Notes: generated by a model not told the origin, from the letters alone. Shown: positions 1 through 64,000, counted from the first letter of the stretch. The stretch is DNA of 64,000 bases from Candidatus Methylomirabilia bacterium (GCA_041478145.1 JBGOVO010000001.1:5702-69701); one strand, 5' to 3'. Numbers and translations: made by a program.

Positions 1-938
1 CCGCGCGGATCCGGGAGCAGGGCGAGATGAACGTGGTCAAGGTCATCGACCCTCCCGGCTTCCCGAGCAAGGCGCCGAACCAGCGCCGCATGCAGTTCGT
101 GGGGCTGGCGCTCGCCCTGGCCCTCGTGATCGGTCTGGGCGCCCCCGCCACGGCCGAGTACTTCAACCGTCCAATCATGGGTGAGGTGGACGTCAAGCAT
201 CTCACCGGTCTGCCGATCCTGACCGCGGTGCCCCAGGTCCACTCGCAGAAAGTGATGATCAACTCGGCCGACGACCAGACTGGGCGAGAGGACTATCACC
301 TCTTCGTCGACGCCTTCCGCCGACTGCGCGTCGAGCTGCAGATGCTCGGCGGCGAGACGCCCCTGCGACGGATCCTGGTGGCCAGCTCCCTGCCCTTCGA
401 GGGTAAGTCCACGATCGTCTTCAACCTCGGCCTGGCCTTCGGTGAGGTCGGCAAGCGGGTCCTCATCGCGGACGCCGACTTCCACCGGCCCACGCTCCAC
501 CGGATCGCCAACGCCACGCCGCGGAAGGGCTTCACGGACCTGCTGGCGGGCGCGACCACGCTCGCCGACACGATCACGTCGATCACGGAGAACGTGCACC
601 TCACTCCGCGAGGCAGCGCCCTTACCGCCCCCGCCAAGACGGGCCTCGGGACCGAGCGGCTCGCCCGGATCCTCGGCGACATGGCGGACGAGGCCGACTA
701 CGTGTTGATGGACTCGTCGCCCATTCTCCTGATTCCGGACAACCTGTACATGGCCGCGGCGGCCGACGGCATTGTGCTCGTGGTGGCGGTGGGGCAAACG
801 CGTCCCCGCGATCTCGTCCGGAGCAAGGCCATCCTGGAGCGGTCCGGAACACCGATCGTCGGCGTGGTGCTGAACCGCACGCCGCTGAAGCACCTGAACT
901 CCTACTACAAGCAGTACAGCGCGTACTACAGCGACTGA
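1..938 (+). CDS. Wzc-like polysaccharide co-polymerase / BY-family tyrosine autokinase, C-terminal part (5' partial; first in-window Met at 27 is probably internal)
   Basis: A TM segment (FVGLALALALVIGLG) is followed by a ParA/MinD-like P-loop domain (PFEGKSTIVFNLGLAFGEVGKRVLIADADFHRPTLH) and a tyrosine-rich C-terminal tail (SYYKQYSAYYSD), as in BY-kinases. The reading frame is open to position 1. Confidence 0.6.
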   Translation, partial: ARIREQGEMNVVKVIDPPGFPSKAPNQRRMQFVGLALALALVIGLGAPATAEYFNRPIMGEVDVKHLTGLPILTAVPQVHSQKVMINSADDQTGREDYHLFVDAFRRLRVELQMLGGETPLRRILVASSLPFEGKSTIVFNLGLAFGEVGKRVLIADADFHRPTLHRIANATPRKGFTDLLAGATTLADTITSITENVHLTPRGSALTAPAKTGLGTERLARILGDMADEADYVLMDSSPILLIPDNLYMAAAADGIVLVVAVGQTRPRDLVRSKAILERSGTPIVGVVLNRTPLKHLNSYYKQYSAYYSD

Positions 939-20647: not shown

Positions 20648-21858
20648 ACATCCTGTTCCTCTGTCACCGGCTGCCTTACCCGCCGAAGCGTGGGGGTAAG
20701 ATCAGACCGTTCAACATGATCCGGCACCTCTCGCGGAATCATCGCGTCACGGTGGCCACCCTGGCGCGGAGCGCGGAGGAGGTGGCCGAGGGGCGGCCTC
20801 TCGCGGAGCACTGCCACGAGCTCCACGTCGAGCGGATCACCCCGGTCGCCGGCTGGCTCCGGTTCGGGCTTCATACCGCGACCGCTTACCCCGCCACCTT
20901 CGGGTACTTCTACTCGCCGGCGCTCGCCCGCACCGTGAAGCAGGTGCTCGCGCGGGGTGACATCGACGCCGTCCTGGTCCACTGCTCCTCCATGGGCCCC
21001 TACGTTGCCGAGCATCGCGGCTGCCGCAAGATCATGGACTTCGGCGATGCGGATTCGGAGAAGTGGCTCGAGTACGGCCGCTCCGCGCCCTTCCCCATCT
21101 CGGTCGGCTTCCGGCTCGAAGGTGAAAAGGTGCGGCGCTTCGAGCGGCAGCTCGCCGAGCGCTTCGACGCCTGCTCCGTCACCGCTCCCCGCGAGCGCGA
21201 GGTCCTCGGCGCCCACGTGAAAGCCCCGATCCACGTGTTCCCCAACGGGGTGGACTCCGGATATTTCCGCTCCGTACGACGGCCGACGGAGCCCTATGCC
21301 CCGCACCGCCTGCTCTTCACCGGGAACATGTCCTACCGGCCCAACGTGGAGGCGGTGCAGCACCTGGTCGTGGATATCCTCCCGCGGATCTGGGAGCGGC
21401 GGCCGGAGGCGGAGCTCTACATCGTGGGAATGGATCCCGCTCCGGCGGTCCGCCGGTTGGCCGACGGCCGCCGCGTGGTCGTGACGGGGCGCGTGGACGA
21501 CGTCCGGCCGTACTTCGAGTCAGCGGCGGTCGCGGTGGCCCCGCTCCGAATCGCGCGCGGGCTGCAGAACAAGGTCCTCGAGGCGATGGCCATGCGGGTC
21601 CCGGTCGTCGCCAGTCCCCAGGCCTTCAACGGAATCAATGCCGTGGCGGACCGCGACCTGCTGGTCGCGGAGGGTCCGGAGGCGTTCGGCCGCGCGGTGG
21701 TGTCCCTGCTCGACGATCCCGTGCGCCGCGAACGCTACGCCGCCGCCGGTCGGGCGTGTGTCGAGGAGAATCACGACTGGGAGCGCATCCTCCACGACCT
21801 GGAGGCCCTCGTGGTGGACGGCCTGGAGCGGCCGACGGCGAGGATCGGCGCCGCGTGA
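20644..21858 (+). CDS. sugar transferase, PEP-CTERM/EpsH1 system-associated type (GT4)
   Basis: MNILFLCHRLPYPPKRGGKIRPFNMIRHL is the hallmark N-terminus of this exosortase-associated GT family. GT-B C-terminus EAMAMRVPVVASPQAF. Confidence 0.8.
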   Translation: MNILFLCHRLPYPPKRGGKIRPFNMIRHLSRNHRVTVATLARSAEEVAEGRPLAEHCHELHVERITPVAGWLRFGLHTATAYPATFGYFYSPALARTVKQVLARGDIDAVLVHCSSMGPYVAEHRGCRKIMDFGDADSEKWLEYGRSAPFPISVGFRLEGEKVRRFERQLAERFDACSVTAPREREVLGAHVKAPIHVFPNGVDSGYFRSVRRPTEPYAPHRLLFTGNMSYRPNVEAVQHLVVDILPRIWERRPEAELYIVGMDPAPAVRRLADGRRVVVTGRVDDVRPYFESAAVAVAPLRIARGLQNKVLEAMAMRVPVVASPQAFNGINAVADRDLLVAEGPEAFGRAVVSLLDDPVRRERYAAAGRACVEENHDWERILHDLEALVVDGLERPTARIGAA

Positions 21859-23330
21859 TGGAGACCCGGAGCGCGCCCCCCATCCGCACGCTGGCCATGA
21901 GGTCGGCGGCCTGGTACGGAGCCACCCGGCTCTGGGGTCAGTTGATCTCCTGGCTCGTCACGCTCCTGCTGGCCCGCCTGCTGCTGCCCCGGGACTACGG
22001 TCTGTTCGCGATGGCCCTGAGCGTTCTGTCCCTGCTGGAGCTGCTGCAGGAGTTCGGACTGGGCACGGCCCTCATCCAGCGCCAGAACCTCACGCAGGAG
22101 CAGATCAACAGTGTCTTCTGGGTCGTGGCCGGCGCGAGCCTCGTGCTCACCGCCGGGACCTTCCTGGCCGCCGGCGCGATCAGCGGCGTGTACGGTGAGC
22201 CGCAGCTCGCGTGGCCGCTGCGGATCCTGTCACTCACCTTCCTGCTGAACTCGCTCGGGATGGTCCCGTACAGCCTCATGACCAAGGCCATCAACCTGCG
22301 CCAGCGATCGCTCGCGGAGGCGTGCGCCACCACCGCCTCGGCGCTGGTCGCCCTCACGCTCGCCTCGATGGGCTGGGGCGTGGCGGCGCTGGTCCTCGGC
22401 CATCTCGCCCGGGCGGTCGTCTCCTGCGCGCTGCTGACGATCTTCTCCGGGTGGCTGCCTGGGCTCGCGGTCAGCCGGGATGGGGTGCGGGGTCTCCTCA
22501 GCTTCGGCCTGAAGGTCGCCGGGTCCCACCTCGTGGGTTCCGGCTCGACGGCGCTCGGAACCTTCGTGATGGCCCGCATGCTGAGCAGCGCCGCGGTCGG
22601 CCTCTACAGCATGGCGGAGAGCCTCACCGAGGCGCCCCATCGCCTGTCCACCGCCGTGATCAACCAGGTCTCGCTGCCCGTGTTCGCGAAGCTCCAGCAC
22701 GATCGGGAGAGCTTGGCCGCTCACTTCCTCAAGATCTCGAAGTTTCTCTGCGTCGTGTCGCTGCCCATGCAGATCGGTCTCGCCCTGGTGGCGCCCGATC
22801 TCATCCCGCTCCTGCTGTCGCCGAGCTGGTCGCCGATGACCGTGCCGTTCCAGATCCTCTGCCTACAGAGCACGATGGTGCTGTCGACGCTCACCTGCAG
22901 CCCCCTCCTTACCGCCCGGGGGCGGGCGACGCTCCTGTTCGGTCTCTCGGTCGCGTCGTTCGCCTGTCTGGTCGGAGGCGTGCTCGTGGGCAGCCTGTTC
23001 GGGCTGGTCGGCATCGCGGTCGCGCGCCTGATCACCACCCTGCCTCTGCGACTGGTGATGCTGCTGCAGACCCTGCGGGAGCTCGAGGTCACCTTCGGCA
23101 CCTTCCTCAAGACCCTGTCGGCGCCGATCGGGGCCTCGGCGGTGATGACTGCGGCCGTGCTTGCCGTCCGGCACGCCTGGATCCAGCCTGCTAGCCGCAT
23201 TGAGCTTCTTACCCTGAGCATTGCAGGGGGCGCCGTGACCTATGCGGTGGCACTCTTCTTGCTCGATCGAACCCTGGTTCCTGACCTCAAGATCATGGCT
23301 CGAGATCTGCGGGGAACCTCAAACGCATAG
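21858..23330 (+). CDS. Wzx-like oligosaccharide flippase / polysaccharide biosynthesis protein (MOP superfamily)
   Basis: About 12 TM helices. N-terminal region (WGQLISWLVTLLLARLLLPRDYGLFAMALSVLSLLELLQEFGLGTALIQ) is typical of Wzx/RfbX flippases. Confidence 0.7.
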   Translation: METRSAPPIRTLAMRSAAWYGATRLWGQLISWLVTLLLARLLLPRDYGLFAMALSVLSLLELLQEFGLGTALIQRQNLTQEQINSVFWVVAGASLVLTAGTFLAAGAISGVYGEPQLAWPLRILSLTFLLNSLGMVPYSLMTKAINLRQRSLAEACATTASALVALTLASMGWGVAALVLGHLARAVVSCALLTIFSGWLPGLAVSRDGVRGLLSFGLKVAGSHLVGSGSTALGTFVMARMLSSAAVGLYSMAESLTEAPHRLSTAVINQVSLPVFAKLQHDRESLAAHFLKISKFLCVVSLPMQIGLALVAPDLIPLLLSPSWSPMTVPFQILCLQSTMVLSTLTCSPLLTARGRATLLFGLSVASFACLVGGVLVGSLFGLVGIAVARLITTLPLRLVMLLQTLRELEVTFGTFLKTLSAPIGASAVMTAAVLAVRHAWIQPASRIELLTLSIAGGAVTYAVALFLLDRTLVPDLKIMARDLRGTSNA

Positions 23331-23333
23331 GAG

Positions 23334-23825
23334 ATGGTGGGTATCATGCTTAGTCGAATCGTTCTGGCAGGCGGCCTGCTGCTTGCGTCTCTCGTCGTCC
23401 TCGCCGTAGAGGCGAGGCCGATCGCGGCCCAGTCCAACGACCCCCTGACGAAGAACACGAAGGATCCGAAGATCATCGCCACCCAGATCAAGAGCGCCCT
23501 GCCTCTCGCGGAGCGCGGGTTCGCGATGCTCAACACCTCGATGGACCCCCAGCCGACGGAGAGCGCGGTGGAGCTGCTCCTGACGTCGTATCGCTATCTG
23601 CGCGCCGCCTACCAGAGCAACGACCTGATCCTCTCCACCTCGAAGGTGCCGGACCCGCTGCTGGAGCTCGAGAACAAGCAGATCATGTACGTCCGGCAGC
23701 GGCTGCTCGACTGCACCGGCAACCGCCAGTACCTCACCGATACGGGTCGAATCCGTACCACGTGTATCGAAGGCCTGGCCCTGGGCCTCCGCACGCTGCG
23801 GACTCTCGCCGTCACGCTGCCATGA
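23334..23825 (+). CDS. hypothetical secreted/periplasmic protein (signal peptide, no recognisable domain)
   Basis: N-terminal hydrophobic signal MLSRIVLAGGLLLASLVVLAVEA. 163 aa. It is translationally coupled to both neighbours. Confidence 0.45.
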   Translation: MVGIMLSRIVLAGGLLLASLVVLAVEARPIAAQSNDPLTKNTKDPKIIATQIKSALPLAERGFAMLNTSMDPQPTESAVELLLTSYRYLRAAYQSNDLILSTSKVPDPLLELENKQIMYVRQRLLDCTGNRQYLTDTGRIRTTCIEGLALGLRTLRTLAVTLP

Positions 23826-52020: not shown

Positions 52021-52551
52021 TCAGGCCGGGAAGTCCGGATAGCTCCGGTCATGGTCGGAGATGGTCCGCTCGGCATCCGGCCACCGGATGCCGAAGACCG
52101 GATCGTCCCACCTCACCCCACGGGCGTGATCCGGCGCGTAGAACTCGGACATCTGATAGAAAACCTCGGTCTCGTCCTCGAGCGTCTGGAAACCGTGCGC
52201 GACGCCCTCAGGCACGTAGAGCATGCGGCGGCTGTCCGCGTCGAGCACCACCGCCTCGTGACGCCGGAAGGCCGGCGAGTCGGGGCGGAGGTCGATGATC
52301 ACGTCATGAATCGCTCCGCGCGTGCACCGGATGAGCTTGGCCTCCCGGTGTGGCACCGCCTGGTAGTGCATGCCGCGGAGGGTGCCCCGGCACTTGTTGA
52401 AGGACACGTTGCACTGCACGAGGCGGGGGTTGAGCCCCCGCTCCTGGAAGTCGCGCTCGCACCAGCTCCGCGCGAAGAAGCCCCGCGCGTCCTCGAGCCG
52501 CTCGAGGTCCACGATCCACGCGCCCGGGAGCGCGGTCTCGGTGAAGATCAC
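52021..52551 (-). CDS. NDP-4-keto-6-deoxyhexose 3,5-epimerase, cupin fold (RfbC-like)
   Basis: 176 aa covering only the C-terminal third of the 655-aa track ORF (the rest is off-frame junk). Motifs RGFFARSW, RGMHYQ and GVAHGFQTLED. GTG start overlaps the methyltransferase stop (GTGA). Confidence 0.8.
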   Translation of the reverse strand: MIFTETALPGAWIVDLERLEDARGFFARSWCERDFQERGLNPRLVQCNVSFNKCRGTLRGMHYQAVPHREAKLIRCTRGAIHDVIIDLRPDSPAFRRHEAVVLDADSRRMLYVPEGVAHGFQTLEDETEVFYQMSEFYAPDHARGVRWDDPVFGIRWPDAERTISDHDRSYPDFPA

Positions 52552-53825: not shown

Positions 53826-54857
53826 CTAGACGCGAACCCACCTCAGGTCGCGGTCCAGCCGTCCCTGGTCGAGCAGGTGCTTGATCTGGGTGAGGCGGAT
53901 GAATCGGCGCCCCTGGAACTCGGCCAGCGTCACGTCCGCGTCCTGGAGCGCGTCGTAGAGGTCCTTGGCGCCGAACGAGGCGTTCCACTGTGGCCGGAAA
54001 TCGGGGAGCGTCCGCGTCAGCTTCGAGAAGTCCACGCGGTAGCTGCGGGGGTCCGGGCCGGCACCTTCCGCGTACTCCACCGTGCAGCCCGCGACGGTGG
54101 CCCGCACGATCTCGGCCAGCTCGCGCACCTGATAGTTCTCGCCGTTCGCGCCCACGTTGAAGGCCTGGTTGTGGATGGCTTCGCGCGGCGCGGCCAGCGC
54201 GGCTGCGAACGCGCGCGAGATGTCCTGGACGTGCACGATGGGACGCCAGGGCGTTCCGTCACTCATGATGCGGATGCGGCCCGTCGTGTGTGCCCAGCAC
54301 ACGAGGTTGTTGAGTACGACGTCGGCCCGGAGCCGCGGGGATACGCCGTAGGCCGTGGCGTTCCGCATGAACACCGGGCTGAAGGAGCTGTCGGCGAGCT
54401 TGGCGACGTCTTCCTCGGTTCGCACCTTGGAGACCGCGTAGGCGGTGAGCGGTCGCAGCGGAGCGTCCTCGGTGAGCAGGTCGTCGGCGCCCGCCGCGCC
54501 GTACATGCTGCACGACGAGGCGTACAGGTAGCGCTTCACTCCCGCCTCGCGGGCGAGCCGGGCCAGGTCCACCGACGCCCGGTGGTTGATGTCGTGCGTC
54601 CACTCTGGATGCAGGTCCCCGAGAGGGTCGTTGCAGAGCGCGGCCAAGTGGGCCACGGCATCGAAGCCCTCCAGGTCGGACGATCGGATGTCCCGGATAT
54701 CCTTGCGGAGCACGGCGATGCGCTCGCTGCCATCCCTGAGGGTGCAGTCCTCGAAGAAGAACGTATCCAGCCCAACCACGTCGTGACCGGCCGCCTGCAG
54801 CACGGGAAGCATGACCGACCCGATGTAGCCGTTGTGCCCAGTCAGAAGAACGCGCAT
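53826..54857 (-). CDS. NAD-dependent epimerase/dehydratase (SDR; candidate CDP-hexose 4,6-dehydratase or 4-ketoreductase)
   Basis: MRVLLTGHNGYIGSVMLPVL Rossmann motif and a YAVSK catalytic dyad. First gene of the minus-strand operon. Confidence 0.8.
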   Translation of the reverse strand: MRVLLTGHNGYIGSVMLPVLQAAGHDVVGLDTFFFEDCTLRDGSERIAVLRKDIRDIRSSDLEGFDAVAHLAALCNDPLGDLHPEWTHDINHRASVDLARLAREAGVKRYLYASSCSMYGAAGADDLLTEDAPLRPLTAYAVSKVRTEEDVAKLADSSFSPVFMRNATAYGVSPRLRADVVLNNLVCWAHTTGRIRIMSDGTPWRPIVHVQDISRAFAAALAAPREAIHNQAFNVGANGENYQVRELAEIVRATVAGCTVEYAEGAGPDPRSYRVDFSKLTRTLPDFRPQWNASFGAKDLYDALQDADVTLAEFQGRRFIRLTQIKHLLDQGRLDRDLRWVRV

Positions 54858-54927
54858 TCCTGCTCCTCTCTCCTCTTAAAGGTCAGGGTGAGAACATCCG
54901 ACCCTGCCAAGTCGGGACGTGATGAGA

Positions 54928-54942
54928 GCAAACAAAGTGCCA
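54928..54942 (-). promoter_or_regulatory. sigma-54 (-24/-12) promoter for the minus-strand decoration operon
   Basis: The plus strand reads GCAAACAAAGTGCCA, so the minus strand reads TGGCAC-TTTGT-TTGCT, a perfect GG-N10-GC consensus. It lies about 70 nt upstream of the first operon gene, whose start is at 54857. Confidence 0.55.
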
Positions 54943-55158
54943 CCGAGGGGGGACTCTTTATTTCTAACCCATTGATTTATTTGGGGATAGAAGGCAATGA
55001 GATAGAGAAGTCGATTCGCTTCATTGGGAAACCGGATTCACTCCGATGTCGAAAGTGCGTGTGGATGCCGCGAGGACGGCCGAAACCTAGAAGAACACGC
55101 TTTGAATCAATTGGTTACGCCACACACTACCTACGCAAAACTTGCGCGACGGATCGAG

Positions 55159-56397
55159 TCATGGTTGGGGACTCAACTGAATCGGGCCGCTGGGTCGCTC
55201 GACCGCTCCGAGCGTCGGCGGGTTCCCGCGCTTCGAGCCGAAGAAGTCATCCGCGACCACGTCCTCACCGCGCACCCCCCCCAGCCCCTGCAGCAGGGAG
55301 CCCGGAGCCGGTGAGAAATCGAGGGCGTCGGGGTTCACAAAGCACGCTGCCCAGGTGCAGTCGACGTTGCCGCCCAGCCGCACGCCTACCCGAGGCCTGG
55401 GCAGGGCCGGGGTGCCGGACCGCACGTGCGCGGCGTTGTTGAGGATGCGCGCCAGCAGCAGTCCGGACTCGGGCGCGGTGATCCCACCCTGCCCGTTGTT
55501 GTAGACCGTGTTGTGGATCAGCGTGATGGCCCGGAGGAGTCCCCGCTGCTGATAGTTCTCCAGACCGATCCCTGCTTCCGCATTCCACCCGGAGATGTTG
55601 TTCCGGACGACGGCTGGGCCTCCCCCCACGACGATGCCCGACGAGGTGCGCGAGCCTCGCACGAAGTTGCGCTCGATCACGCTAACGAGCGTGATGTCGC
55701 GCGACCCGAAGACCATGATACCCGGGCCCTTCGTGCCCACGATGCGGTTGTCGCGAATCACCCCCGCCGAGTTCAGCTTCACCTCGAGCCCGTAGCCCAC
55801 CTCCTCGGGCACCGCCGTCACGCCGTGGATGTAGTTGCCCTCCACGAGCAGTCCGCTGACGGCGCACGCGGTACCATTGTGGCAGCCGAAGTACATGCCG
55901 GTAGAGCCGGAATCCACGATCACGTTGCCGCGAACCGTGAGGCCCTGCACACTCGCGTGGGTCGAGGCGATCGCGATCCCTCCCAGCTCGGAGAAACGGC
56001 AGTCTTCCACGGTGATGCGGTTGCCCGACATGATCCGCACTCCATCCGCTTCTCCGCGGGCCGCCCAGAAGTCGAGGCCCCGGATCGTGATATCGCTGGC
56101 GCGGATCTCGAGAAGATTGACCGGCTGGCCCGGATACACGAGTCGTGCCCGGTGGTCGGGATCCACCGACCGGATGACGAGCGGGCGTCCCGACTCTCCT
56201 CCGCGCCGCAGCTTGCAGCCTCCTCGATAGTCGCCCGGCCGGAGGACGAGCTCCTCGCCTGGCGGCAGCGCCCGGATGGCGGCACACAGATCCGACTCCG
56301 GACCGATCTCGAGCGCCCGCGCCGCGGCGGGGACGAGGCCGCCGGCCAGCAGGGCTGCCAAAGCGATGCCGGCGCCATCCATCAGTCGTGTCAACAC
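55159..56397 (-). CDS. secreted right-handed parallel beta-helix repeat protein (pectate-lyase fold; candidate polysaccharide lyase/depolymerase or C5-epimerase-like)
   Basis: Signal peptide MLTRLMDGAGIALAALLAGGLVPAAARA. Repeated beta-helix rungs (ITIRGLDFWA, ITVEDCRFSE, VQGLTVRGNVIVDS, LLVEGNYIHG, IRDNRIVG, VVRNNISG). Confidence 0.65.
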   Translation of the reverse strand: MLTRLMDGAGIALAALLAGGLVPAAARALEIGPESDLCAAIRALPPGEELVLRPGDYRGGCKLRRGGESGRPLVIRSVDPDHRARLVYPGQPVNLLEIRASDITIRGLDFWAARGEADGVRIMSGNRITVEDCRFSELGGIAIASTHASVQGLTVRGNVIVDSGSTGMYFGCHNGTACAVSGLLVEGNYIHGVTAVPEEVGYGLEVKLNSAGVIRDNRIVGTKGPGIMVFGSRDITLVSVIERNFVRGSRTSSGIVVGGGPAVVRNNISGWNAEAGIGLENYQQRGLLRAITLIHNTVYNNGQGGITAPESGLLLARILNNAAHVRSGTPALPRPRVGVRLGGNVDCTWAACFVNPDALDFSPAPGSLLQGLGGVRGEDVVADDFFGSKRGNPPTLGAVERPSGPIQLSPQP

Positions 56398-56490
56398 AGC
56401 ACCTCCTATGCGCTTGTCCGCTCCTGATCGTATACGCTAGACTCCCGTCGACGCCAATGTATAAGCCGAACACGCCTTGCCGGCTCCGCC

Positions 56491-56940
56491 ATGTCTGATG
56501 AGGCCGGCCCGACGCCCCGAATCTTCCCGGACATGGAGATGCGCCATCTCCTGGCCCGGGAGGTGCAGCGCTGCACGCGCTACCAAGCGTTCCTCTCGGT
56601 CTGTCTGATCCGCGCCGCCTATTCGGGCGCGCCGCGAGCCGACATGGAGAGCGCGATCGCCCGGCGCATCGCCGACATGCTGCGCTCCACCGATATCGTC
56701 GGCGTCATCGGGCAGGATATCGCGGTGGTCCTCGTGCACACGCCGGACACGGACGCGGCCACGATCGCCGACCGCATGCGTGATCGGGTCCAGAGCGACT
56801 CCTCCGGCGCGCCGCCGTCGGAAGGCCGCGTGGACCTCAGCATCGGCGTCGCCTCGTTTCCCACCGACGCCACGAGCGACCCCGGCCTTCTCGCGCACGC
56901 TCAGGCCCAGCTCCAGGCCGCGCGGCGCGCAGCCGGTTGA
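56491..56940 (+). CDS. stand-alone degenerate GGDEF-like domain protein (GQDIA in place of GGDEF, RxxD I-site retained)
   Basis: Aligns to the GGDEF core: RSTD-IVGVI-GQDIAVVLVHTPDTD corresponds to RxxD-5aa-GGEEFvvllPdtd, and the C-terminal VDLSIGVASFP corresponds to the ITvSiGVA element. The N-terminal substrate-binding part of the domain is missing. Confidence 0.5.
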   Translation: MSDEAGPTPRIFPDMEMRHLLAREVQRCTRYQAFLSVCLIRAAYSGAPRADMESAIARRIADMLRSTDIVGVIGQDIAVVLVHTPDTDAATIADRMRDRVQSDSSGAPPSEGRVDLSIGVASFPTDATSDPGLLAHAQAQLQAARRAAG

Positions 56941-56990
56941 GATGAGGCCAGAAGTCGGCTAACATCCCCCCAGCCCGGAGGAGGTAGGGC

Positions 56991-57650
56991 ATGGCTCTCT
57001 ACGTGGTCGAGCGCGATCTGAGCAATATCCCCCCGGAGCAATTGCGTCTCGACCAGCGCGATGTCGCCTCCGTGTGCATCCAGCTCAAGGCGCGGGGCAA
57101 GCGCATCCGCTATATCAGCAGCGCGGTGGTGCCGTCCGACGGACGCGCGCTCGATCTGTTCGGGGCGGAAAATGCCGAGCTGATCAAAGAGGCCCACGCC
57201 TCCGCCGGCGTCCACTACTCGCGCATCGTGGAGATTCTCGACCTCACGCCGAGCTTCGTCCACCGGGATACGTCGCGATCGAGGCGCTCACTGCAGCGAT
57301 CCGTCGGTGCCTCCGCCGATGCGGGCGCCGTGAAAGGGACCGGGCACACCATGACTGCAAACTCGGCGCCCGAGCTGGCACGATGGCTCGCCGACGGCCA
57401 GCGGCTCTTCGGCGTGTGCCTGGAAGCGCTCGAGAACCTGGAGCGCTTGCAGAGCCGGAGTCACACGCTGGAGAGGGAGAACGAGATGCTCCGGGAGGAG
57501 GTCGCGCGCCTGCGCCAGAAGGTCGATGTGCTGCAGGCAGACCGGTCCGAGATGGTGGCCGCGTTCAATGATCTCGCCGGCCACGTCACGCAGGTCGTGG
57601 ACCACATCCTGCAAAAGTCCGAGGACGGAGAAAACTCGAACCCGAAGTGA
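56991..57650 (+). CDS. DUF4242-like N-terminal domain protein with C-terminal coiled coil (hypothetical)
   Basis: MALYVVERDLSNIPPEQLRLDQRD...YISSAVVPSDGRALDLFGAENAELIKEAHASAGVHYSRIVEI resembles the DUF4242 (SCO4226-like) fold. C-terminus has heptad-like LERENEMLREEVARLRQKVDVLQ. A GGAGGAGG RBS lies upstream. Confidence 0.45.
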   Translation: MALYVVERDLSNIPPEQLRLDQRDVASVCIQLKARGKRIRYISSAVVPSDGRALDLFGAENAELIKEAHASAGVHYSRIVEILDLTPSFVHRDTSRSRRSLQRSVGASADAGAVKGTGHTMTANSAPELARWLADGQRLFGVCLEALENLERLQSRSHTLERENEMLREEVARLRQKVDVLQADRSEMVAAFNDLAGHVTQVVDHILQKSEDGENSNPK

Positions 57651-57668
57651 TCGCGAGGCAGCCGCGTC

Positions 57669-57685
57669 GGTGTAAAAGTTACACC
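57669..57685. promoter_or_regulatory. perfect 7-bp inverted repeat with 3-nt spacer (GGTGTAA-AAG-TTACACC); hairpin or operator candidate
   Basis: Lies 18 nt after the stop of the DUF4242-like gene. The extended arms pair over 8-9 bp (CGGTGTAA/TTACACCG). No U-tract follows. Confidence 0.3.
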
Positions 57686-58230
57686 GAACGTCGGTAAGTT
57701 CTTCGGGCGATCGACCCCGGAAAGATCAGCGCGGCGACGGGGGCCCGGTCCGTGACCGTTCATCCTGCCGCGCGTCAAAAACTCCGACACCATTTTCCGG
57801 GTCATGCTATGTGCAATTAAGATGTGCACACCGGGCGAGCAAGGACGCCGGCTCGCTTACGGGAGGGAGTCTCCTGGTTGCCGGGCAGCTTCGCAGAGGC
57901 GCTAACCATCCGGGAAGTCAGTCGAATTCGCCACTTCTTCTCCGCGGGCTGGAGTTGGCGCCGTACCGGAAGAAAAGTAGAAAGCTCGGTCACCGTGAAG
58001 CGCCTAGCACATTCCTTCGTAGTGCATGCAACAGTTGCGAGCGCTGAGCCTGCCCGGAAGTCATTGAATTCGGTGGCATTAATTCACGAGGAAACGCCAG
58101 CACGTCAGTCTTCATTAACAGTGGCGTCAGAAAGGAACTGGATTTCCCATTAAGTGAAGTTGATTGCCTCTCCACCGCGGCGTTCTGGTTCGGTAGATCA
58201 GGCACTTGCACACTTCAGTGATAAGTCCGG

Positions 58231-58245
58231 ATGGCACCTCCTTTG
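58231..58245 (+). promoter_or_regulatory. sigma-54 (-24/-12) promoter upstream of the enhancer-binding-protein operon
   Basis: TGGCAC-CTCCT-TTGCT is a perfect GG-N10-GC consensus, about 80 nt upstream of ATG 58325. Confidence 0.55.
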
Positions 58246-58324
58246 CTCTTCGTAACCACGCCAACGCGTATGGTCGGGATTTCACACGAGGGCTCATCTG
58301 AACCCCTGGACGAAAGATGACGCA

Positions 58325-59719
58325 ATGAAGAACAGACTAGTGCTCGTCGCTGCCCCGGAAGCGCGCTCCCAGCAGCACCTCGCCGCGACACTCAGCGAAT
58401 GGGGCTATGAGCCGGTGTGTACGAGCTCGCTCGAAGACGCGCTGCCGGAAATGGCGCAGCGACGGTTCTTGCTGAGCCTCCTCGACCTCGGCGCGAGCGC
58501 GGGAGAGCTGCTCCGCCGCCTCCGGACGCAAGGAGGCTCGCCGGGCGCCATCGTCGTGATCGCCGACGCCGACGCGGGCGAACGCGCTGTGGAGGCCACC
58601 TCGCTCGGCGCCGACGACTTCCTCCAGAAGCCGTTCACGTCCGACGACCTCGAGAACGTGATCAAGAGCGCCCTGTCACGCCCGCGGCGAAGCTGGGAGC
58701 GCACGCCCGACGACGAGACTCGGAGCCGACTCCACGAAGAGGTCGGGCTCTGGCGCAGCGCGAAGATGAGGGAGGTCCGCGACATCATCGAGCAGGCGGC
58801 CCGCGTGGACGTCACCGTGCTCATCTGCGGCGAGACGGGCACCGGCAAGGACGTCGTCGCGCGCGCGGTCCACGACGAGTCGATCCGCGAGAGCGGCCCC
58901 TTCGTCAAGGTCAACTGCGCCGCGGTGCCCCGCGAGCTGCTCGAGAGCGAGCTATTCGGCCACGAGCGCGGGGCCTTCACGGGCGCGCACCAGCTCAAGA
59001 TCGGCAAGTTCGAGTCGGCCGACCGCGGCACCATTTTCCTGGACGAGATCGGCGATCTGCATCCCGCGCTCCAGGGCAAGCTCCTGCACGTGTTGCAGGA
59101 CGGTCAGTTCTCGCGCGTGGGCGGCCGCTCCACCGTCAAGGTGGACGTCCGCGTGCTCGCCGCCACCAACCAGGATCTCGAGCAGGCGGTGGCGACGGGG
59201 CGGTTCCGGGAGGATCTCTACTACCGGCTGAACGTCATCCAGATCGTGGTGCCGCCGCTGCGCGAGCGCCCCGAAGAGATCCCGGTCCTCGCCGAGTACT
59301 TCATGCAGCGCTACTCGCAGCTCTTCCGCCGCGAGAGCCTGCGCCTCCCCGCGGAGACCGTGCAGCGGCTCATGCACCACCGGTTCCCGGGCAATGTCCG
59401 GGAGCTGGAGAACATGATCAAGCGCATGATCGTCCTCGGCGACCCGCTCCTGCGGCGCAGTCCCCTGCCCGGCGGCGTGCCCGTGACCGAGGAGAACGGC
59501 GCCCCGCGCCCGGCCAAGGCCGCGACGCTGTCGTTGAAGGACATTTCGCGCAAGGCCGCCCAGATCGCGGAGCGCGAAGCCATCCTTCAGGCGCTGGAGC
59601 AGACGCAGTGGAACCGCGTCCGCGCCGCCAAGCTCCTGGAGATCTCGTACCGGGCCCTCCTGTACAAGATCAAGGACGCCGGGCTGGACCGTGAGCGCCG
59701 CGGAGCCCACCGGTCATGA
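58325..59719 (+). CDS. sigma-54-dependent Fis-family transcriptional regulator (PEP-CTERM-box response-regulator PrsR-like) with atypical receiver domain
   Basis: AAA+ sigma-54 activator core (VLICGETGTGKDVVARAVH, ESELFGHERGAFTGA, GAFTGA-type loop) and a C-terminal Fis HTH (NRVRAAKLLEISYRALLYKIK). In the N-terminal receiver-like domain the acidic pair is replaced (LVLVAAPE), while LLDL and KPF are retained. Confidence 0.85.
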   Translation: MKNRLVLVAAPEARSQQHLAATLSEWGYEPVCTSSLEDALPEMAQRRFLLSLLDLGASAGELLRRLRTQGGSPGAIVVIADADAGERAVEATSLGADDFLQKPFTSDDLENVIKSALSRPRRSWERTPDDETRSRLHEEVGLWRSAKMREVRDIIEQAARVDVTVLICGETGTGKDVVARAVHDESIRESGPFVKVNCAAVPRELLESELFGHERGAFTGAHQLKIGKFESADRGTIFLDEIGDLHPALQGKLLHVLQDGQFSRVGGRSTVKVDVRVLAATNQDLEQAVATGRFREDLYYRLNVIQIVVPPLRERPEEIPVLAEYFMQRYSQLFRRESLRLPAETVQRLMHHRFPGNVRELENMIKRMIVLGDPLLRRSPLPGGVPVTEENGAPRPAKAATLSLKDISRKAAQIAEREAILQALEQTQWNRVRAAKLLEISYRALLYKIKDAGLDRERRGAHRS

Positions 59720-61299
59720 GCGACGCGGTCCGGGGCCTCGACGACGCGGCCGCCACCCCGCGCGGCTCCGGCCTCGGCCGCTTGCGCCTGGCCTGGAGCC
59801 GGCGGAAGTGGCTGGGCATGCTTGTGGCCTTGGTGCCGCTCACCGGCGGCGTCAGCATCATCATGGCGCTGCCGGATCTTTACCAGTCCACCGCCCTCGT
59901 GATGATCGAGCGCCAGCAGGTTCCGGAGGCGTTCGTCAGACCCACGGTGACGAGCCAGCTCGAGATCCGCCTGCAGACCATCAGTCAGGAGATCCTCAGC
60001 CGCTCCCGCCTCGACACCCTCATCACCCGCTTCAATCTGTACCCCGAGCTGCGGAAGGCCACCTCCTCCGAGGAGGCGGTGGACCGGCTGCGGACCGACA
60101 TCCGGCTCGAGCTGAAGGCCGACGCCGGCAGGGTCGGCACCACGACCGCCTTCGCCCTCTCCTACCGGGGACGCGACCCGCAGACGGTGGCGCTCGTCAC
60201 CAACACCCTGGCGTCCTTCTACATCGAGGAGAATCTCAAGGCGCGGGAGCGACAGGCGACGGGAACCGCCGAGTTCCTGCGTGTCCAGCTCACGGAAGCC
60301 AAGAAGCGCCTCGACGACCAGGAGACGCGGGTGAGCGGCCTGCGGCGCCGGTACCTTGGGCAGCTCCCCCAGCAGATGCAGGGTAACCTCGCCACCCTGG
60401 ATTCGCTCACCGGGCAACTCCGCATCAACAGCGACAACCAGGTCCGCCTGGCCGAGCGACGCGACCAGCTCGTCTCCCAGCTCGCCCAGGCCCGAATTGT
60501 CGCCGGCGACGAGACCGACGAGATGCTCCTGGCCCGGCTGCGGCGCGAGCTCAGCCTGCTGCGCATCAAGTACACGGACCTGTGGCCGGATATCATCCGG
60601 ATCAAGGACGAGATCGCCAACCTCGAGAAGCAGATAGCGGGGCCGAAGCCCAAGGCCGCGGCCAAGACACCGCCTCCGCCCAGCCCCGAGGTCATGCGGA
60701 TCCAGGAGGCGATCCAGATCGCCGAGACCGAGATGAAGCTGTTGAAGGTGGATGAGCAGCGCATCCGCCGCTCCCTCGAGACGTACCAGTCTCGCGTCGA
60801 GAACGCTCCCAAGAGCGAGCAGGAGTTTCTCGAGATGACGCGCGACTACGAGGGGACCCGGGAGCTCTACCAGACGCTCTCGAAGCGCTACGAGGAAGCT
60901 CTGCTCGCCGAGAGCATGGAGCAGCGCCAGAAGGGCGAGCAGTTCCGGGTCCTGGACCCGGCCCTCGCGTCCTCGGTGCCCACCGCGCCCAAGCGGTCAC
61001 GGCTTCTTCTCGCCTGCGTCGCGCTGTCACTGGCCCTCGGCGCCGGCGCCGTGGTGCTCGCGGAAATGCTCGATACCTCGTTCCATTCGACCGGCGATCT
61101 CCGTGCCTACACCACCGTCCCGGTCCTGGTGAGCATTCCGAGGATCTCGACCGGAGCGGACTCGCGGCGCGAGCGGTGGCGGTTCCGGTTCGCGGCCGCC
61201 GGCGTGCTCGTTTGCCTCGTGGTGCTCGCCGGCTCCTGCTACTTCTTCGCTCACGGGAACGAGCAGCTCGCCCAGCTGCTCTCCCGCGGGCGCGCGTGA
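59716..61299 (+). CDS. polysaccharide chain-length determinant protein, PEP-CTERM-locus subfamily (Wzz/PCP-like)
   Basis: N-terminal TM segment (WLGMLVALVPLTGGVSIIMAL), a long coiled-coil periplasmic domain, and a C-terminal TM segment (LLLACVALSLALGAGAVVLA). ATG overlaps the upstream TGA. Confidence 0.8.
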   Translation: MSDAVRGLDDAAATPRGSGLGRLRLAWSRRKWLGMLVALVPLTGGVSIIMALPDLYQSTALVMIERQQVPEAFVRPTVTSQLEIRLQTISQEILSRSRLDTLITRFNLYPELRKATSSEEAVDRLRTDIRLELKADAGRVGTTTAFALSYRGRDPQTVALVTNTLASFYIEENLKARERQATGTAEFLRVQLTEAKKRLDDQETRVSGLRRRYLGQLPQQMQGNLATLDSLTGQLRINSDNQVRLAERRDQLVSQLAQARIVAGDETDEMLLARLRRELSLLRIKYTDLWPDIIRIKDEIANLEKQIAGPKPKAAAKTPPPPSPEVMRIQEAIQIAETEMKLLKVDEQRIRRSLETYQSRVENAPKSEQEFLEMTRDYEGTRELYQTLSKRYEEALLAESMEQRQKGEQFRVLDPALASSVPTAPKRSRLLLACVALSLALGAGAVVLAEMLDTSFHSTGDLRAYTTVPVLVSIPRISTGADSRRERWRFRFAAAGVLVCLVVLAGSCYFFAHGNEQLAQLLSRGRA

Positions 61300-61306
61300 G
61301 CGCCCC

Positions 61307-62350
61307 GTGGCCATCTACGTCAACTTCTACGGGTTGGAGCGCGATCCCTTCGGGCCGACGCCCGATCCGGACTTCCTCTTCCTCACCCCGGGCCACAAGG
61401 AAGCCCTCGCCCAGCTGCTCTACGCCATCCAGGAGCGGAAGGGCTTCATCCTGGTCACGGCCGAGGTGGGCATGGGGAAGACGATGCTCCTGCAGGCCCT
61501 CCGCCAGGAGCTCGACAGCACGACGGCCGTCGCCTACGTGTCGAACTCGATGCTCCCCTTCCCCGGCATCCTCGAATACATGCTGGCGGAGTTCGAGATC
61601 CAGAAGCCCGGCGAGTCCCACGCCCAGCGGCTGGTGGCGCTCCAGAACTTCCTGCTCGAGCGCCACCGGACCGGGCAGAGCACGGTCCTGATCCTCGACG
61701 AGGCGCAAAACCTCTACCCGCAGACGCTCGAGCAGATCCGGCTCCTGTCCAACTTCGAGACCACCAAGGAGAAGATCCTCCAGATCGTGCTGGTTGGGCA
61801 GCCCGAGCTACTGGCCCGCCTCGATCTCCCGGAGCTGCGGCAGCTCAAGCAGCGCATCGCCATCCTGTGCACGATTCCGCCGATGACAGCGTCCGGAACC
61901 CGGAACTATATCCGGACCCGGCTGCGCCTAGCCGGTTCCCGGGATCTCGGGATCTTCACGGAAGAGGCGCTGGCCCGCATCTCGGCCCACGCCGCCGGCA
62001 TCCCGCGCGTGGTCAACACGCTCTGCGATCACTGCCTGCTCATCGGCTACGCCGACCAGACCCGACGCATCGACGGCGGCATCGTCGACCAGGCCGTATC
62101 CTATTTCCATGGCGGTCTGCCGGCCCGGCCGGCGCGGCGGGTGCGCTCGACCCCGAGCGTCGCGCGGCGGCGAGCCCGCCGCCGCATGGGGCCGCTCGGC
62201 TGGGGCCTTCTCGGCACGTCGGCCGCCGTCGTGGCCGCCGTCGGCGCCCTGGTCATCCTCCATCCCGGGCTTTTGCCCCAGGCGATGGGCCTCTCGAGCG
62301 ATCAGTTCTGGGACATGGCGCGCACCCTGCGCACCTTGATCGGCGGATGA
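61307..62350 (+). CDS. AAA ATPase of the PEP-CTERM/XrtA-locus secretion-ATPase type (ExeA/GspA-like)
   Basis: LERDPFGPTPDPDFLFLTPGHKEALAQLLYAIQERKGFILVTAEVGMGKTML contains the Walker A motif, and the Walker B motif is VLILDEAQNL. GTG start. Confidence 0.8.
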   Translation: MAIYVNFYGLERDPFGPTPDPDFLFLTPGHKEALAQLLYAIQERKGFILVTAEVGMGKTMLLQALRQELDSTTAVAYVSNSMLPFPGILEYMLAEFEIQKPGESHAQRLVALQNFLLERHRTGQSTVLILDEAQNLYPQTLEQIRLLSNFETTKEKILQIVLVGQPELLARLDLPELRQLKQRIAILCTIPPMTASGTRNYIRTRLRLAGSRDLGIFTEEALARISAHAAGIPRVVNTLCDHCLLIGYADQTRRIDGGIVDQAVSYFHGGLPARPARRVRSTPSVARRRARRRMGPLGWGLLGTSAAVVAAVGALVILHPGLLPQAMGLSSDQFWDMARTLRTLIGG

Positions 62351-63231
62351 GCAAGTTCTCGAAGGCCCTCGAGCAGGCGCAGCGAGACCGGGTCCTCCGG
62401 GCCCGGCCCGTCCCGACCGACAACGGGCACGCTGCCGAGCCGCGACCGACGCGACCGGTGCCCAAGCCCCCGTCGACGCGTCGGCGCGGGGTGGGACCGA
62501 CCGGAGCCGTCGATGACCACCTGGTGAGCCTGGTGGCCCCCGCGGGCCTGGAGGCCGAGCAATATCGCGCGCTCCGTCACGTGGTGGAGCAGCGGCGTCG
62601 GAGCGACAATCTGACCGTGATCGCCGTCTCGAGTCCCGGGGGCGGCGACGGCAAGACGATCACCGCCATCAACCTGGCCGGCGCGCTGGCCCAGGCGCCG
62701 GACGCCCGGGTGCTGCTGGTCGAGGCGGACCTGCGTCGGCCCTCGATCGGGTCTCTCCTCGGTCTCAACGATCCCGGCGCTCCGGGGCTGGTGCACGCCA
62801 TCCTCGATCCGGGTCTGTCACTGGCCCAGGTCGCCCAGACCCTGACGACGTTCAATCTGAGCGTGGTGCTTGCCGGCCAGACCCCGCCAAGCCCCTACGA
62901 GATCCTGAAGTCGCCCCGTCTGGCCGAGCTGCTCGACGAGGCCCGCCGCGACTATGACTATGTCGTCCTGGACACGCCGCCCCTGGTTCCGGTCCAGGAT
63001 TGCCGGCTGATCGCCCGCCTGGTGGACGGGCTCGTCCTCGTGGTGGCCGCCCACCGCACGCCGCGCCCGATGCTCGAGGCGGCGCTCGACGTCCTTGACC
63101 CCACGCGACTGATCGGTCTCGTCTTCAATGGCGACGATCACCTTCTGGCCGGCCGCCAGCTCGGGTACAACGCCGGCTACTACGCGCCGCCGAAGGCAAG
63201 GAGTCGGCGGCCCACGGATCGGTCACGGTGA
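62347..63231 (+). CDS. exopolysaccharide/PEP-CTERM-locus tyrosine autokinase (CpsD/CapB-like BY-kinase)
   Basis: Walker A VSSPGGGDGKTITAINLAGALA, plus VVLDTPPLVPVQD and a Tyr-rich tail (LGYNAGYYAPP). ATGA overlap with the ATPase gene. The upstream part of the track ORF is off-frame junk. Confidence 0.8.
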   Translation: MSKFSKALEQAQRDRVLRARPVPTDNGHAAEPRPTRPVPKPPSTRRRGVGPTGAVDDHLVSLVAPAGLEAEQYRALRHVVEQRRRSDNLTVIAVSSPGGGDGKTITAINLAGALAQAPDARVLLVEADLRRPSIGSLLGLNDPGAPGLVHAILDPGLSLAQVAQTLTTFNLSVVLAGQTPPSPYEILKSPRLAELLDEARRDYDYVVLDTPPLVPVQDCRLIARLVDGLVLVVAAHRTPRPMLEAALDVLDPTRLIGLVFNGDDHLLAGRQLGYNAGYYAPPKARSRRPTDRSR

Positions 63232-64000
63232 GCCTCGCCATCCTCGAGGGCCTCGTCTTGTTCCTGGCGGTGTCCGGAAGCATCTTCGCCTGGGGCCATC
63301 TCCTGCTCGTGGATTGGCTCGACGTCGCCACGCTGCTCTGGCAAGCCGCGGCAGTGTCGCTCTGCTGCATCGTCGCCTTCTACTACAACGATCTGTACGA
63401 CATCCAGGTCGTCCGGAGCTTCAGCCTCTTTGCGTCCCGGCTGCTCCAGTCCTTCGGCGTGGCCCTGATCCTGCTGGCCGGCTTCTACACGCTCTTCCCC
63501 GCGACGCAGATCCGCGAGAGCGCCTTCTTCTCGAGCCTGGTGGTCAGCGCCGGTCTCCTGGTCCCCCTCCGCGCCGTGGGCTATGCGATCATGCGCCGCC
63601 GGGCCTTCGCCGATCGCGTGCTCATCCTGGGCACCGGCCCCCTGGCCACGCGGCTGCTGCGCGAGATCGAGGCGCGGCCGAACTTCCGCTACTCGATCGC
63701 CGGCGTCGCCGATGAGGGCACCGGGGCTCCGCCGAGCGATCTCCCGTATCCGGTGCTCGGTCCGGTGGAGCGCCTGGACAAGATCATCGAGGAGGTCAAG
63801 CCCGACCGCATCATCGTGGCCCTCGCCGAGCGGCGCGGGCGAATGCCGGTGGGCCATCTCCTCGAGTGCGGCGCGCGGGGCATCCTGGTCGAGGACGGGC
63901 TGCGGACTTACGAGTACTTCACCGGGAAGCTTCCGATCGAGTCGCTCACGCCGTCGTTCCTCATCTTCTCGGGGGCCTTCCGCAAGTCCCGCCTTCAGCT
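63228..64000 (+). CDS. polyprenyl-phosphate sugar phosphotransferase, PEP-CTERM-associated (WbaP/CpsE-like priming transferase), 3' partial
   Basis: By-eye translation from GTG 63228 gives VSLAILEGLVLFLAVSGS...AFYYNDLYDIQVVRSFS...VLILGTGPLATRLLREIEARPNFRYSIAGV. This matches the TM plus Rossmann-like N-half of EPS priming transferases. The frame is open to the window end. Confidence 0.7.
   Translation, partial: MSLAILEGLVLFLAVSGSIFAWGHLLLVDWLDVATLLWQAAAVSLCCIVAFYYNDLYDIQVVRSFSLFASRLLQSFGVALILLAGFYTLFPATQIRESAFFSSLVVSAGLLVPLRAVGYAIMRRRAFADRVLILGTGPLATRLLREIEARPNFRYSIAGVADEGTGAPPSDLPYPVLGPVERLDKIIEEVKPDRIIVALAERRGRMPVGHLLECGARGILVEDGLRTYEYFTGKLPIESLTPSFLIFSGAFRKSRLQ

Follow-up and report, generated by a model that had tools for sequence, protein, structure and literature searches.

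A conserved sigma-54 promoter and a candidate self-activating operon in an XrtA-associated polysaccharide locus of a Candidatus Methylomirabilia bacterium

The activator operon and its promoter

The window analyzed here, a stretch of 64,000 nucleotides (68.6% GC) from a Candidatus Methylomirabilia bacterium (GCA_041478145.1 JBGOVO010000001.1:5702-69701), carries at 58325-59719 on the plus strand the gene for a sigma-54 enhancer-binding protein of 464 amino acids, referred to below as the activator, which heads an operon for polysaccharide export and priming. The original prediction, made from the sequence alone, had placed this gene behind its own sigma-54 promoter and in a positive autoregulatory loop. 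The 674-bp gap that precedes the gene had been described as AT-richer than the coding DNA, and its GC fraction was indeed 0.52-0.60, compared with 0.65-0.74 in the flanking coding DNA. On the other side of the gap, also on the plus strand, lies the gene for a 219-amino-acid protein with a SCO4226-like domain (PF14026, 38 bits) and a C-terminal coiled coil (56991-57650). This gene stands upstream of nearly all activator orthologues, separated from them by a gap of 400-650 bp (loci L001-L003 and about 30 of the metagenome loci introduced below). That its product might be a partner or sensor of the activator, in the manner of PspA for PspF, is pure speculation.

Downstream of the activator, the operon continues on the plus strand with an XrtA-system chain-length determinant (59716-61299; TIGR03007, 290.8 against a cutoff of 278.85), an XrtA/PEP-CTERM-associated ATPase-like gene (61307-62350; TIGR03015, 250.9, under the curated cutoff of 324.5), a polysaccharide tyrosine autokinase (62347-63231; TIGR01007, 110.2 against 108.05, and TIGR03018, 138.6 against 230.65), and the N-terminal part of a priming glycosyl-phosphotransferase (63228-64000; partial matches to TIGR03013 and TIGR03025), whose gene is cut by the window edge. 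ATG/TGA overlaps had been claimed at 59716, 62347 and 63228. The first two are ATGA overlaps, joining the chain-length gene to the activator and the autokinase to the ATPase gene, but the third is GTGA, where the transferase gene begins with GTG; a gap of 8 nt lies between 61299 and the GTG start at 61307. The coupling of the activator to the export and priming genes is also seen outside the window, as 8 of the 12 most closely related genomic loci keep the order activator, chain-length gene, ATPase.

The domains of the activator are those of a sigma-54-dependent regulator. The sigma-54 interaction domain of the AAA+ type (PF00158) matched residues 144-307 with 243.9 bits and has the Walker A sequence GETGTGK, the translation carries HERGAFTGA, and thus the GAFTGA loop that contacts sigma-54, and an AAA lid was found as well. 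The C-terminus contains a Fis-type helix-turn-helix (PF02954, HTH_8; 43.1 bits, residues 415-450). The receiver is atypical, and its match to PF00072 is marginal (33.5 bits against a cutoff of 30.2). When numbered by NtrC (acidic pocket D11/D12, D54, T82 and K104), 31 of 33 orthologues keep D54 and 27 keep K104, whereas position 11 is never Asp and T82 is replaced by Ala in 27. In the same 33 orthologues the receiver (residues 1-125, window 58325-58700) also has a loop after D54 that is three residues shorter. The label "PrsR-like" given to the protein in the original prediction holds as a functional analogy only; the PrsR model of NCBIfam (TIGR02915) scored 344.6, well below its cutoff of 502.6 and below the models for AtoC (368.8) and NtrC (353.6). 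Neither PrsK or PrsT (TIGR02916, TIGR02917) nor any histidine kinase was found among the window open reading frames (ORFs) scanned, and the activator gene is the sole regulator in that set.

The core promoter, TGGCACCTCCTTTGCT, occupies 58232-58247 on the plus strand, with the -24 GG at 58233-34 and the -12 GC at 58245-46. The TGGCAC-N5-TTGCT element had been reported at 58231-58245, which is one to two nucleotides off its true span. It lies in non-coding DNA, its GG and GC doublets are 10 nt apart, and it points at the activator gene, whose ATG (58325) follows at 93 nt; from this layout, 58257-58259 is a reasonable prediction for the transcription start site (TSS). The exact string TGGCAC-N5-TTGC occurs three times in the window (23248 plus, 54942 minus and 58232 plus), compared with 0.07 expected from dinucleotide-preserving shuffles, and 0 of 100 shuffles gave three. 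Only two full-score sigma-54 sites fall in the intergenic DNA of the window. The promoter is also conserved at orthologous positions. In L001-L003, which were picked by a protein search without use of any DNA motif and are free of ascertainment bias for that reason, TGGCAC or TGGCAT-N5-TTGCT stands 78-162 nt upstream of the activator start and scores at least 19.5 of 20.5, compared with a background of about 0.0035 equally high scores per 200 nt.

A genome scan for further sites of this kind upstream of exopolysaccharide genes had been suggested. Within the window, one of the two other matches, at 54942, heads a sugar operon; the other (23248-23262, plus strand) lies within the 3' end of a flippase gene (21756-23330). 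The latter match, where the DNA encodes a hydrophobic stretch, is 98 nt upstream of a gene for a 159-amino-acid signal-peptide protein without a family match (23346-23825) and is accompanied neither by TTTCCCA nor by GCAA-N3-TTGC, two elements described in the next section. An internal promoter is conceivable, but the match is possibly fortuitous.

A very large polysaccharide locus of the XrtA-associated type fills the remainder of the window and includes a deacetylase, a FemAB-like protein, stp1-3 glycosyltransferases, an O-antigen-ligase-like protein, an acyl-CoA ligase and amidotransferases. The XrtA-associated families TIGR03006, 03007, 03019, 03087, 03088, 03097, 03098 and 04063 all scored above cutoff. 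Exosortase A and PEP-CTERM proteins were absent from the window ORFs scanned, and may sit beyond 64 kb. At the left edge (27-938, plus strand), the window includes the last part of a further Wzc-like gene for a tyrosine autokinase (TIGR01007, 115.9 bits), which implies two chain-length/kinase sets, one per end of the 64 kb. Finally, between a beta-helix gene and the coiled-coil gene, a plus-strand ORF of 149 amino acids (56491-56940) matches the C-terminal two-thirds of a GGDEF domain, and no GG[DE]EF motif was seen in it by eye.

A proximal module shared between promoters

The second intergenic sigma-54 promoter, TGGCACTTTGTTTGCT, runs from 54942 to 54927 on the minus strand and carries the same upstream module as the activator promoter (54927-55146 in all). 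The surrounding gap is AT-rich and 300 bp long, and the ATG (54857) that follows the promoter at 85 nt belongs to an epimerase gene, the first in a minus-strand block of sugar-modification genes that extends down to 43575, an operon of 11 kb. Its elements are two matches to the consensus of the integration host factor (IHF; 54965-54977 and 55105-55117), TTTCCCA from 55031 to 55025, and CGCAAAACTTGCG (55134-55146). An orthologue of this promoter was found at locus L117, between a beta-helix gene and an rmlC-like gene. Within the sugar operon itself, 435 bp between a DUF4910 gene and a C-methyltransferase gene (52113-52547) have no called gene.

The two window promoters and those of L001-L003 align without gaps from the TTTCCCA element through the -12 region. 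The distance from TTTCCCA to TGGCAC is 89 nt in both window promoters, in L001 and in L003 (where the element reads TTTCCTA), and 88 nt in L002. Moreover, the composite pattern GAA-N5-TTTCCYA-N82-TGGCAY-N5-TTGC matches the window at these two promoters only and gave no match in shuffles. At the activator promoter, this alignment delimits a candidate enhancer "box", GTCAGAAAGGAACTGGATTTCCCATTAAGTGAA (58126-58158, plus strand), with a core dyad GGAA-N6-TTCC at 58134-58147 and TTTCCCA at 58143-58149. The box spans -106 to -73 relative to the T of TGGCAC, and its center is about 117 nt before the predicted TSS, a usual distance for a sigma-54 enhancer. A search of the window with a 17-mer from the box, allowing three mismatches, returned the self-match only; the second copy is shifted in register by 1 nt and was seen on aligning both promoters.

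Further conserved elements of the gap were defined by a footprint of 32-36 non-identical orthologous gaps, in which positions are given relative to the T of TGGCAC. A palindrome, GCAACAGTTGC (58028-58038, plus strand), of the form GCAA-N3-TTGC lies 204 nt before TGGCAC and is a second candidate site for the activator. It recurs at -202 to -206 in 27 of 36 gaps, and two of its three copies in the 64 kb are at the matching position of the two sigma-54 promoters (-204 at the activator and -202 at the second promoter). Directly upstream of it, a conserved block, AGCACATTCCTTCG (58006-58019, plus strand; -226 to -213), is present in 22 of 36 gaps and has at least 80% identity across 32 sequences.

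Two further sites resemble the IHF consensus, WATCAANNNNTTR. The proximal one, GATCAGGCACTTG (58196-58208, plus strand), is 36 nt before TGGCAC and has two mismatches to the consensus. Among 33 related promoters, 13 have a site with at most one mismatch that falls exactly at -36, and both the second promoter and L003 match the consensus perfectly. The distal one, GAAGTCATTGAAT (58057-58069, plus strand; -175), is in reverse orientation, YAANNNNTTGATW, and again has two mismatches, whereas a site with at most one mismatch stands at -174 to -176 in 14 of the 33 promoters and the second promoter has a perfect one. Thus, the IHF-like sites of the two window promoters take nearly the same positions, -36 versus -35 for the proximal site and -175 for the distal one.

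A protein-based scan with one genome per species gave 12 close relatives of the activator (60-88% identity), all from soil or groundwater metagenome-assembled genomes (MAGs) that are mostly labelled Methylomirabilota/Rokubacteria, although some labels disagree. L001-L003 retain the 219-amino-acid gene and the long gap in addition to the promoter. In L008, whose activator is 61% identical, an exact sigma-54 promoter lies downstream of the activator gene and not upstream of it, before a Wza-like export gene and a priming transferase; this arrangement ties the activator clade to exopolysaccharide promoters. The same L008 promoter was considered as a carrier of the box and shows no clear one.

To this we can add a scan of a metagenome collection with the fixed module as the pattern, which returned 64 loci, in all of which the spacing and 20 bases were forced by the search. 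Thirty-four of the 64 are upstream of activator orthologues (68-91% identity) and have the order 219-amino-acid gene, gap, activator, chain-length gene. One of the others is L117, the orthologue of the second promoter. Conservation extends to positions that the pattern left free: the G completing GGAA, then TGAA, T.CC, the IHF-like block, and the T that follows TTGC. In five loci (L094/L095, L109, L112, L123 and L125) the core of the module (box, 82 nt, sigma-54 promoter) precedes, by 60-100 nt, genes with a PEP-CTERM sorting domain (TIGR02595, 20.4-29.8 against a cutoff of 16) on contigs of 41-66% GC. Five such genes among about 20 independent non-activator loci are far above the share of these genes among all genes, in a qualitative comparison, and probably above their share among sigma-54 promoters. 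The remaining loci include pilin-like genes, a FliL-like gene (by sequence), one match to TIGR02266 below cutoff, and some probable chance matches. A relaxed scan for the module in 0.98 Mb of sequence found no members of the regulon other than L002 and L003.

Several of these loci deserve a separate description. In L112 and L123, on contigs of 65-66% GC, the box comes right after what has the appearance of a tRNA 3' end, a large membrane protein is encoded downstream, and the -204 palindrome is absent. L083 and L111, on contigs of 30% GC, have two GGAAATATATTTCC dyads, the second without its first G (L083, about 8630-8741, minus strand), at the 82-nt spacing to TGGCAT-N5-TTGC; a membrane-protein gene follows and a 37%-identical activator lies upstream. 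These two loci indicate that the layout of dyad plus spacing is used well outside the PEP-CTERM context. A comparison of the helix-turn-helix of the window activator with that of L083, located beside perfect GGAAAT-N2-ATTTCC dyads, yielded no informative difference or likeness. Genes with a prepilin-type N-terminus (L089/L110/L118, L091 and L130) follow GGGAAG-N4-CTTTCC, or a sequence akin to it, whose spacing to TGGCAT or TGGCAC-N5-TTGC is unchanged; the L089 product scored above cutoff for TIGR02532 and weakly for GspH, and L130 has a 41%-identical activator nearby.

Among the relatives of the activator, L004 (about 2710-2760) and L007 (about 2450-2500), 68-69% identical, have a divergent activator-like gene upstream, on the opposite strand, that encodes GETGTGK. 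Their gap contains a strong palindrome, TGTCGAAAC-N4-GTTTCGACA in the L007 copy and looser in L004, about 130 nt before a weaker TGGTAC-N5-CTGC, and this palindrome looks like a different enhancer for a related operon.

Possible upstream inputs and the case for self-activation

Two sites farther upstream in the gap had been put forward as activator sites. The first, the dyad TGTGCA-N9-TGCACA (57810-57830, plus strand), is present as described, including the direct repeat ATGTGCA at 57809 and 57822. In 30 of the 36 gaps of the footprint it is kept as TRTGCA-N9-TGCAYA at about -420; its half-sites are conserved, and its spacer is not. The second, the palindrome GGTGTAAAAGTTACACC (57669-57685), which follows the stop of the upstream gene, was likewise found where it had been reported, is unique in the window, and is followed by a third half-site, GGTAAGTTC (57693-57701; 57669-57701 in all, plus strand). 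GTGTAA-N3-TTACAC, with GGTAAGTTC after it, recurs in 29 of 36 gaps at -500 to -650. Conservation of this extent indicates that both are real, selected elements. The role assigned to them is another matter, as they stand about 420 and about 560 bp before the promoter and have no counterpart at the second promoter, which shares the proximal module; the shared enhancer would therefore be the proximal module, and the two distant sites appear to be extra inputs for the activator promoter.

For the palindrome at 57669-57685 there is the alternative that it is a 3' stem-loop, a terminator or stabilizer, of the upstream mRNA. In the window it starts 19 nt past the stop codon, in orthologues it stays close behind that gene, and the extended hairpin has a predicted energy of -27.2 kcal/mol (z = -1.9). 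Yet the GTAA...TTAC core is invariant in 28 distinct orthologous copies, changes in the outer positions are uncompensated, the flanking bases that lengthen the stem of the window copy show no conservation, no T tract follows, and the third half-site, which is unpaired, is conserved about 8 nt downstream. This pattern is more in keeping with a protein operator than with an RNA stem, and we consider the stem-loop doubtful. It concerns this element only, and would be compatible with self-activation of the operon.

Downstream of the promoter, the leader element GTATGGTCGGGATTTCACAC (58268-58287, plus strand; about +10 to +30 of the predicted transcript) has the consensus TATGG-N8/9-TTCAYA, found also in the form (C)GTATGG-N8/9-TTCAYA, and could be an operator just 3' of the start site. 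The ATG at 58270 is conserved; an upstream ORF beginning there (TGA at 58318-58320 in the window) was considered and rejected, as its length is not conserved between orthologues. More generally, a small ORF or other protein-coding content in the gap seems unlikely, because conservation is confined to blocks of 8-20 nt split by unalignable DNA with insertions and deletions. An Rfam scan of 54800-58400 with E up to 1 gave no match, and no known leader RNA or small RNA in that interval accounts for the conserved blocks.

Taken together, these observations make it likely, in our judgment, that the activator raises the transcription of its own operon through the shared module. RNA polymerase with sigma-54 would occupy TGGCAC-N5-TTGCT (58232-58247) as a closed complex, and the enhancer-binding protein would occupy the GGAA-N6-TTCC/TTTCCCA dyad about 117 nt before the start, and probably GCAA-N3-TTGC at -204 too. 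The two IHF-like bends, at -36 and -175 from TGGCAC, could carry the activator to the closed complex. Such a series of enhancer dyads, bends and -24/-12 elements is classical for sigma-54 promoters. The transcript from about 58258 would then cover the activator, chain-length, ATPase, tyrosine-kinase and priming-transferase genes, coupled by ATGA and GTGA overlaps, such that the activator would boost its own synthesis together with that of the export machinery in a positive feedback and would co-activate the sugar operon. Additional signals would be fed into the activator promoter from the -420 and -560 sites. The activator is the likeliest binder of the module, because the module heads the second local operon, its core precedes PEP-CTERM genes elsewhere, and the activator is conserved together with it. 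Positive autoregulation is thus plausible, and is better founded than the original prediction could know.

Several findings weigh against this interpretation. The assignment of the protein to the site rests on adjacency and co-conservation, and the fit of individual elements is imperfect; the left arm of the box in the window is GGAACT, the second promoter carries GTGAA in place of GGAA, and both IHF-like sites of the activator promoter have two mismatches. The metagenome loci, as noted, were found by pattern and share their spacing and 20 bases by construction. The distant orthologues L004 and L006-L009 have weaker GG/GC sigma-54 candidates and other upstream DNA. Furthermore, GGAA...TTCC dyads are found at the equal position before pilin-like and other genes (L083, L089, L091 and L130), which means that the dyad geometry is not exclusive to one regulon or activator. 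In addition, the receiver is atypical and no kinase gene lies nearby. A positive loop also requires a basal transcript, yet the scan of the gap gave no sigma-70-like promoter.

Some of the same findings suggest a cascade in place of a loop, in which another enhancer-binding protein, encoded elsewhere, would fire the promoter, either one of the NtrC type at the 57810-57830 dyad or one of the PrsR type at the box, while the local activator would form a downstream tier acting on other promoters. The TGCA-N9-TGCA arrangement of the -420 dyad, with its conserved half-sites and free spacer, has the geometry of the NtrC consensus TGCACCAnnnTGGTGCA (PMC8743547), and another activator might act there. 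The box geometry before unrelated genes on unrelated contigs shows that several activators may read similar dyads; a local activator with an atypical receiver and no kinase partner, and the second, divergent activator-like gene beside the orthologue in L004 and L007, would suit a cascade as well. However, the second promoter has the proximal module without the -420 and -560 sites, which points to the proximal module as the shared enhancer, and the only regulator gene among the window ORFs scanned is that of the activator, which is conserved together with the module at 34 metagenomic and 3 genomic loci. We therefore regard a cascade as unlikely and prefer self-activation.

It is very improbable that an unrecognized housekeeping-type promoter in the gap, or read-through from the upstream gene, transcribes the activator operon, with the conserved blocks as ordinary repressor or activator operators. 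In favor of this reading, the upstream gene shares the strand of the activator gene and lacks a T-tract terminator on the plus strand (the sole terminator-like match is on the wrong strand), the gap holds at least five conserved blocks without an assigned binder, feedback needs basal transcription, and no promoter consensus is established for the phylum. Against it, the exact 10-base core keeps its distance to several other elements across dozens of orthologues, the architecture is repeated at the second operon and before PEP-CTERM genes, the gap showed no sigma-70-like pair of hexamers, and the product of the downstream gene is itself a sigma-54 activator.

Comparison with known systems

Sigma-54 control of exopolysaccharide genes is well known, and EpsI/Nla24 of Myxococcus are examples of sigma-54 activators within exopolysaccharide loci; likewise, glnAp2-ntrBC and zraSR are self-activating sigma-54 activator operons. 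Polysaccharide systems of the exosortase/PEP-CTERM kind occur widely in bacteria of soil and sediment and in floc formers, and their regulation has been described for Proteobacteria only, through PrsK/PrsR and RpoN. The locus described here offers a testable candidate for one non-proteobacterial lineage, comprising an activator clade, a rigidly spaced candidate enhancer, two local operons, and PEP-CTERM genes elsewhere. If the proposed mechanism is true, a self-activating switch on export and priming predicts all-or-none matrix production, which would bear on aggregation and biofilm formation in uncultured soil bacteria.

Upstream of proteobacterial PEP-CTERM genes, Haft et al. (2006; PMC1569441) described a 17-nt motif ending in TTTACA, followed after a spacer of about 63 nt (32-92) by a sigma-54 motif. 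They found the motif in Proteobacteria only, its phylogenetic profile matched those of PrsK, PrsR and PrsT, and by their account other lineages must use other regulators and motifs (PMC1569441). An RpoN-dependent pepA has since been reported in Aquincola (PMC9850573). The present locus resembles that system in having an NtrC-family activator at an exosortase-type exopolysaccharide locus, a motif of about 17 nt separated by a spacer of tens of nucleotides from a -24/-12 motif, and a location of this element some 70 nt ahead of start codons within long non-coding DNA, also in front of PEP-CTERM genes. It differs in that the activator falls under the TIGR02915 cutoff, has no PrsK or PrsT nearby, and has a receiver without equivalents of D11 and T82. 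Its relatives are mostly Methylomirabilota/Rokubacteria and other non-proteobacterial soil MAGs. The motif is GGAAA-N4/5-TTTCCCA, in contrast to one ending in TTTACA (compared with the published description in words, not with the logo), and the spacer is about 80 nt, compared with a mean of 63. Furthermore, the box is not confined here to single PEP-CTERM genes but also stands before a sugar operon and the operon of the activator itself.

From these differences one may draw a tentative picture of a second, non-proteobacterial PEP-CTERM system, which we hold to be possible while leaning somewhat against it. It would consist of an NtrC-family activator that is an orphan, has a degenerate receiver and lacks a PrsK kinase, maybe controlled by the SCO4226-like, coiled-coil neighbor; of a box of its own, GGAAA-N4/5-TTTCC, 82 nt before TGGCAC; and of a regulon made up of its own export and priming operon, the sugar-nucleotide operon, and PEP-CTERM genes. 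If true, such a system would supply for non-Proteobacteria what Haft et al. (2006) had left open.

Activators co-transcribed behind their own sigma-54 promoters have also been described in Desulfovibrio vulgaris (DVU3382-DVU3381 and DVU1949; PMC4641369). The arrangement found here, an activator gene together with target genes behind a sigma-54 promoter thought to be self-activated, is the same as in these operons and in glnAp2-ntrBC and zraSR. In those loops, however, a cognate kinase or a ligand domain provides the switch, whereas the activator here has an atypical receiver and no adjacent kinase, and the cargo of the operon is a polysaccharide export and priming module.

The candidate binding sites have parallels within the same protein family. 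LuxO sites, TTGCAW3TGCAA at -89 to -119 (PMC11443567), share the 13-bp arm-N3-arm layout with GCAA-N3-TTGC at -204, and NtrC sites share the TGCA-N9-TGCA layout with the -420 dyad; all would be dyads for dimers with a Fis-type helix-turn-helix. The half-site sequences differ, and the distances at this locus (-204 and -420) are larger than those typical of LuxO or NtrC sites. In Vibrio vulnificus, DctD2 is reported to be a sigma-54 activator that switches on an exopolysaccharide cluster (PMC9040800). The activator described here would be similar to DctD2 and to EpsI/Nla24 in this respect, and differs from them in that they are not known to be related to exosortase/PEP-CTERM. Overall, the locus appears to be a lineage-specific variant of the scheme of PEP-CTERM box and sigma-54, differing in the clade of its activator and the sequence of its box and having a longer, fixed spacer; it is the annotation of a familiar regulatory logic and not a new principle.

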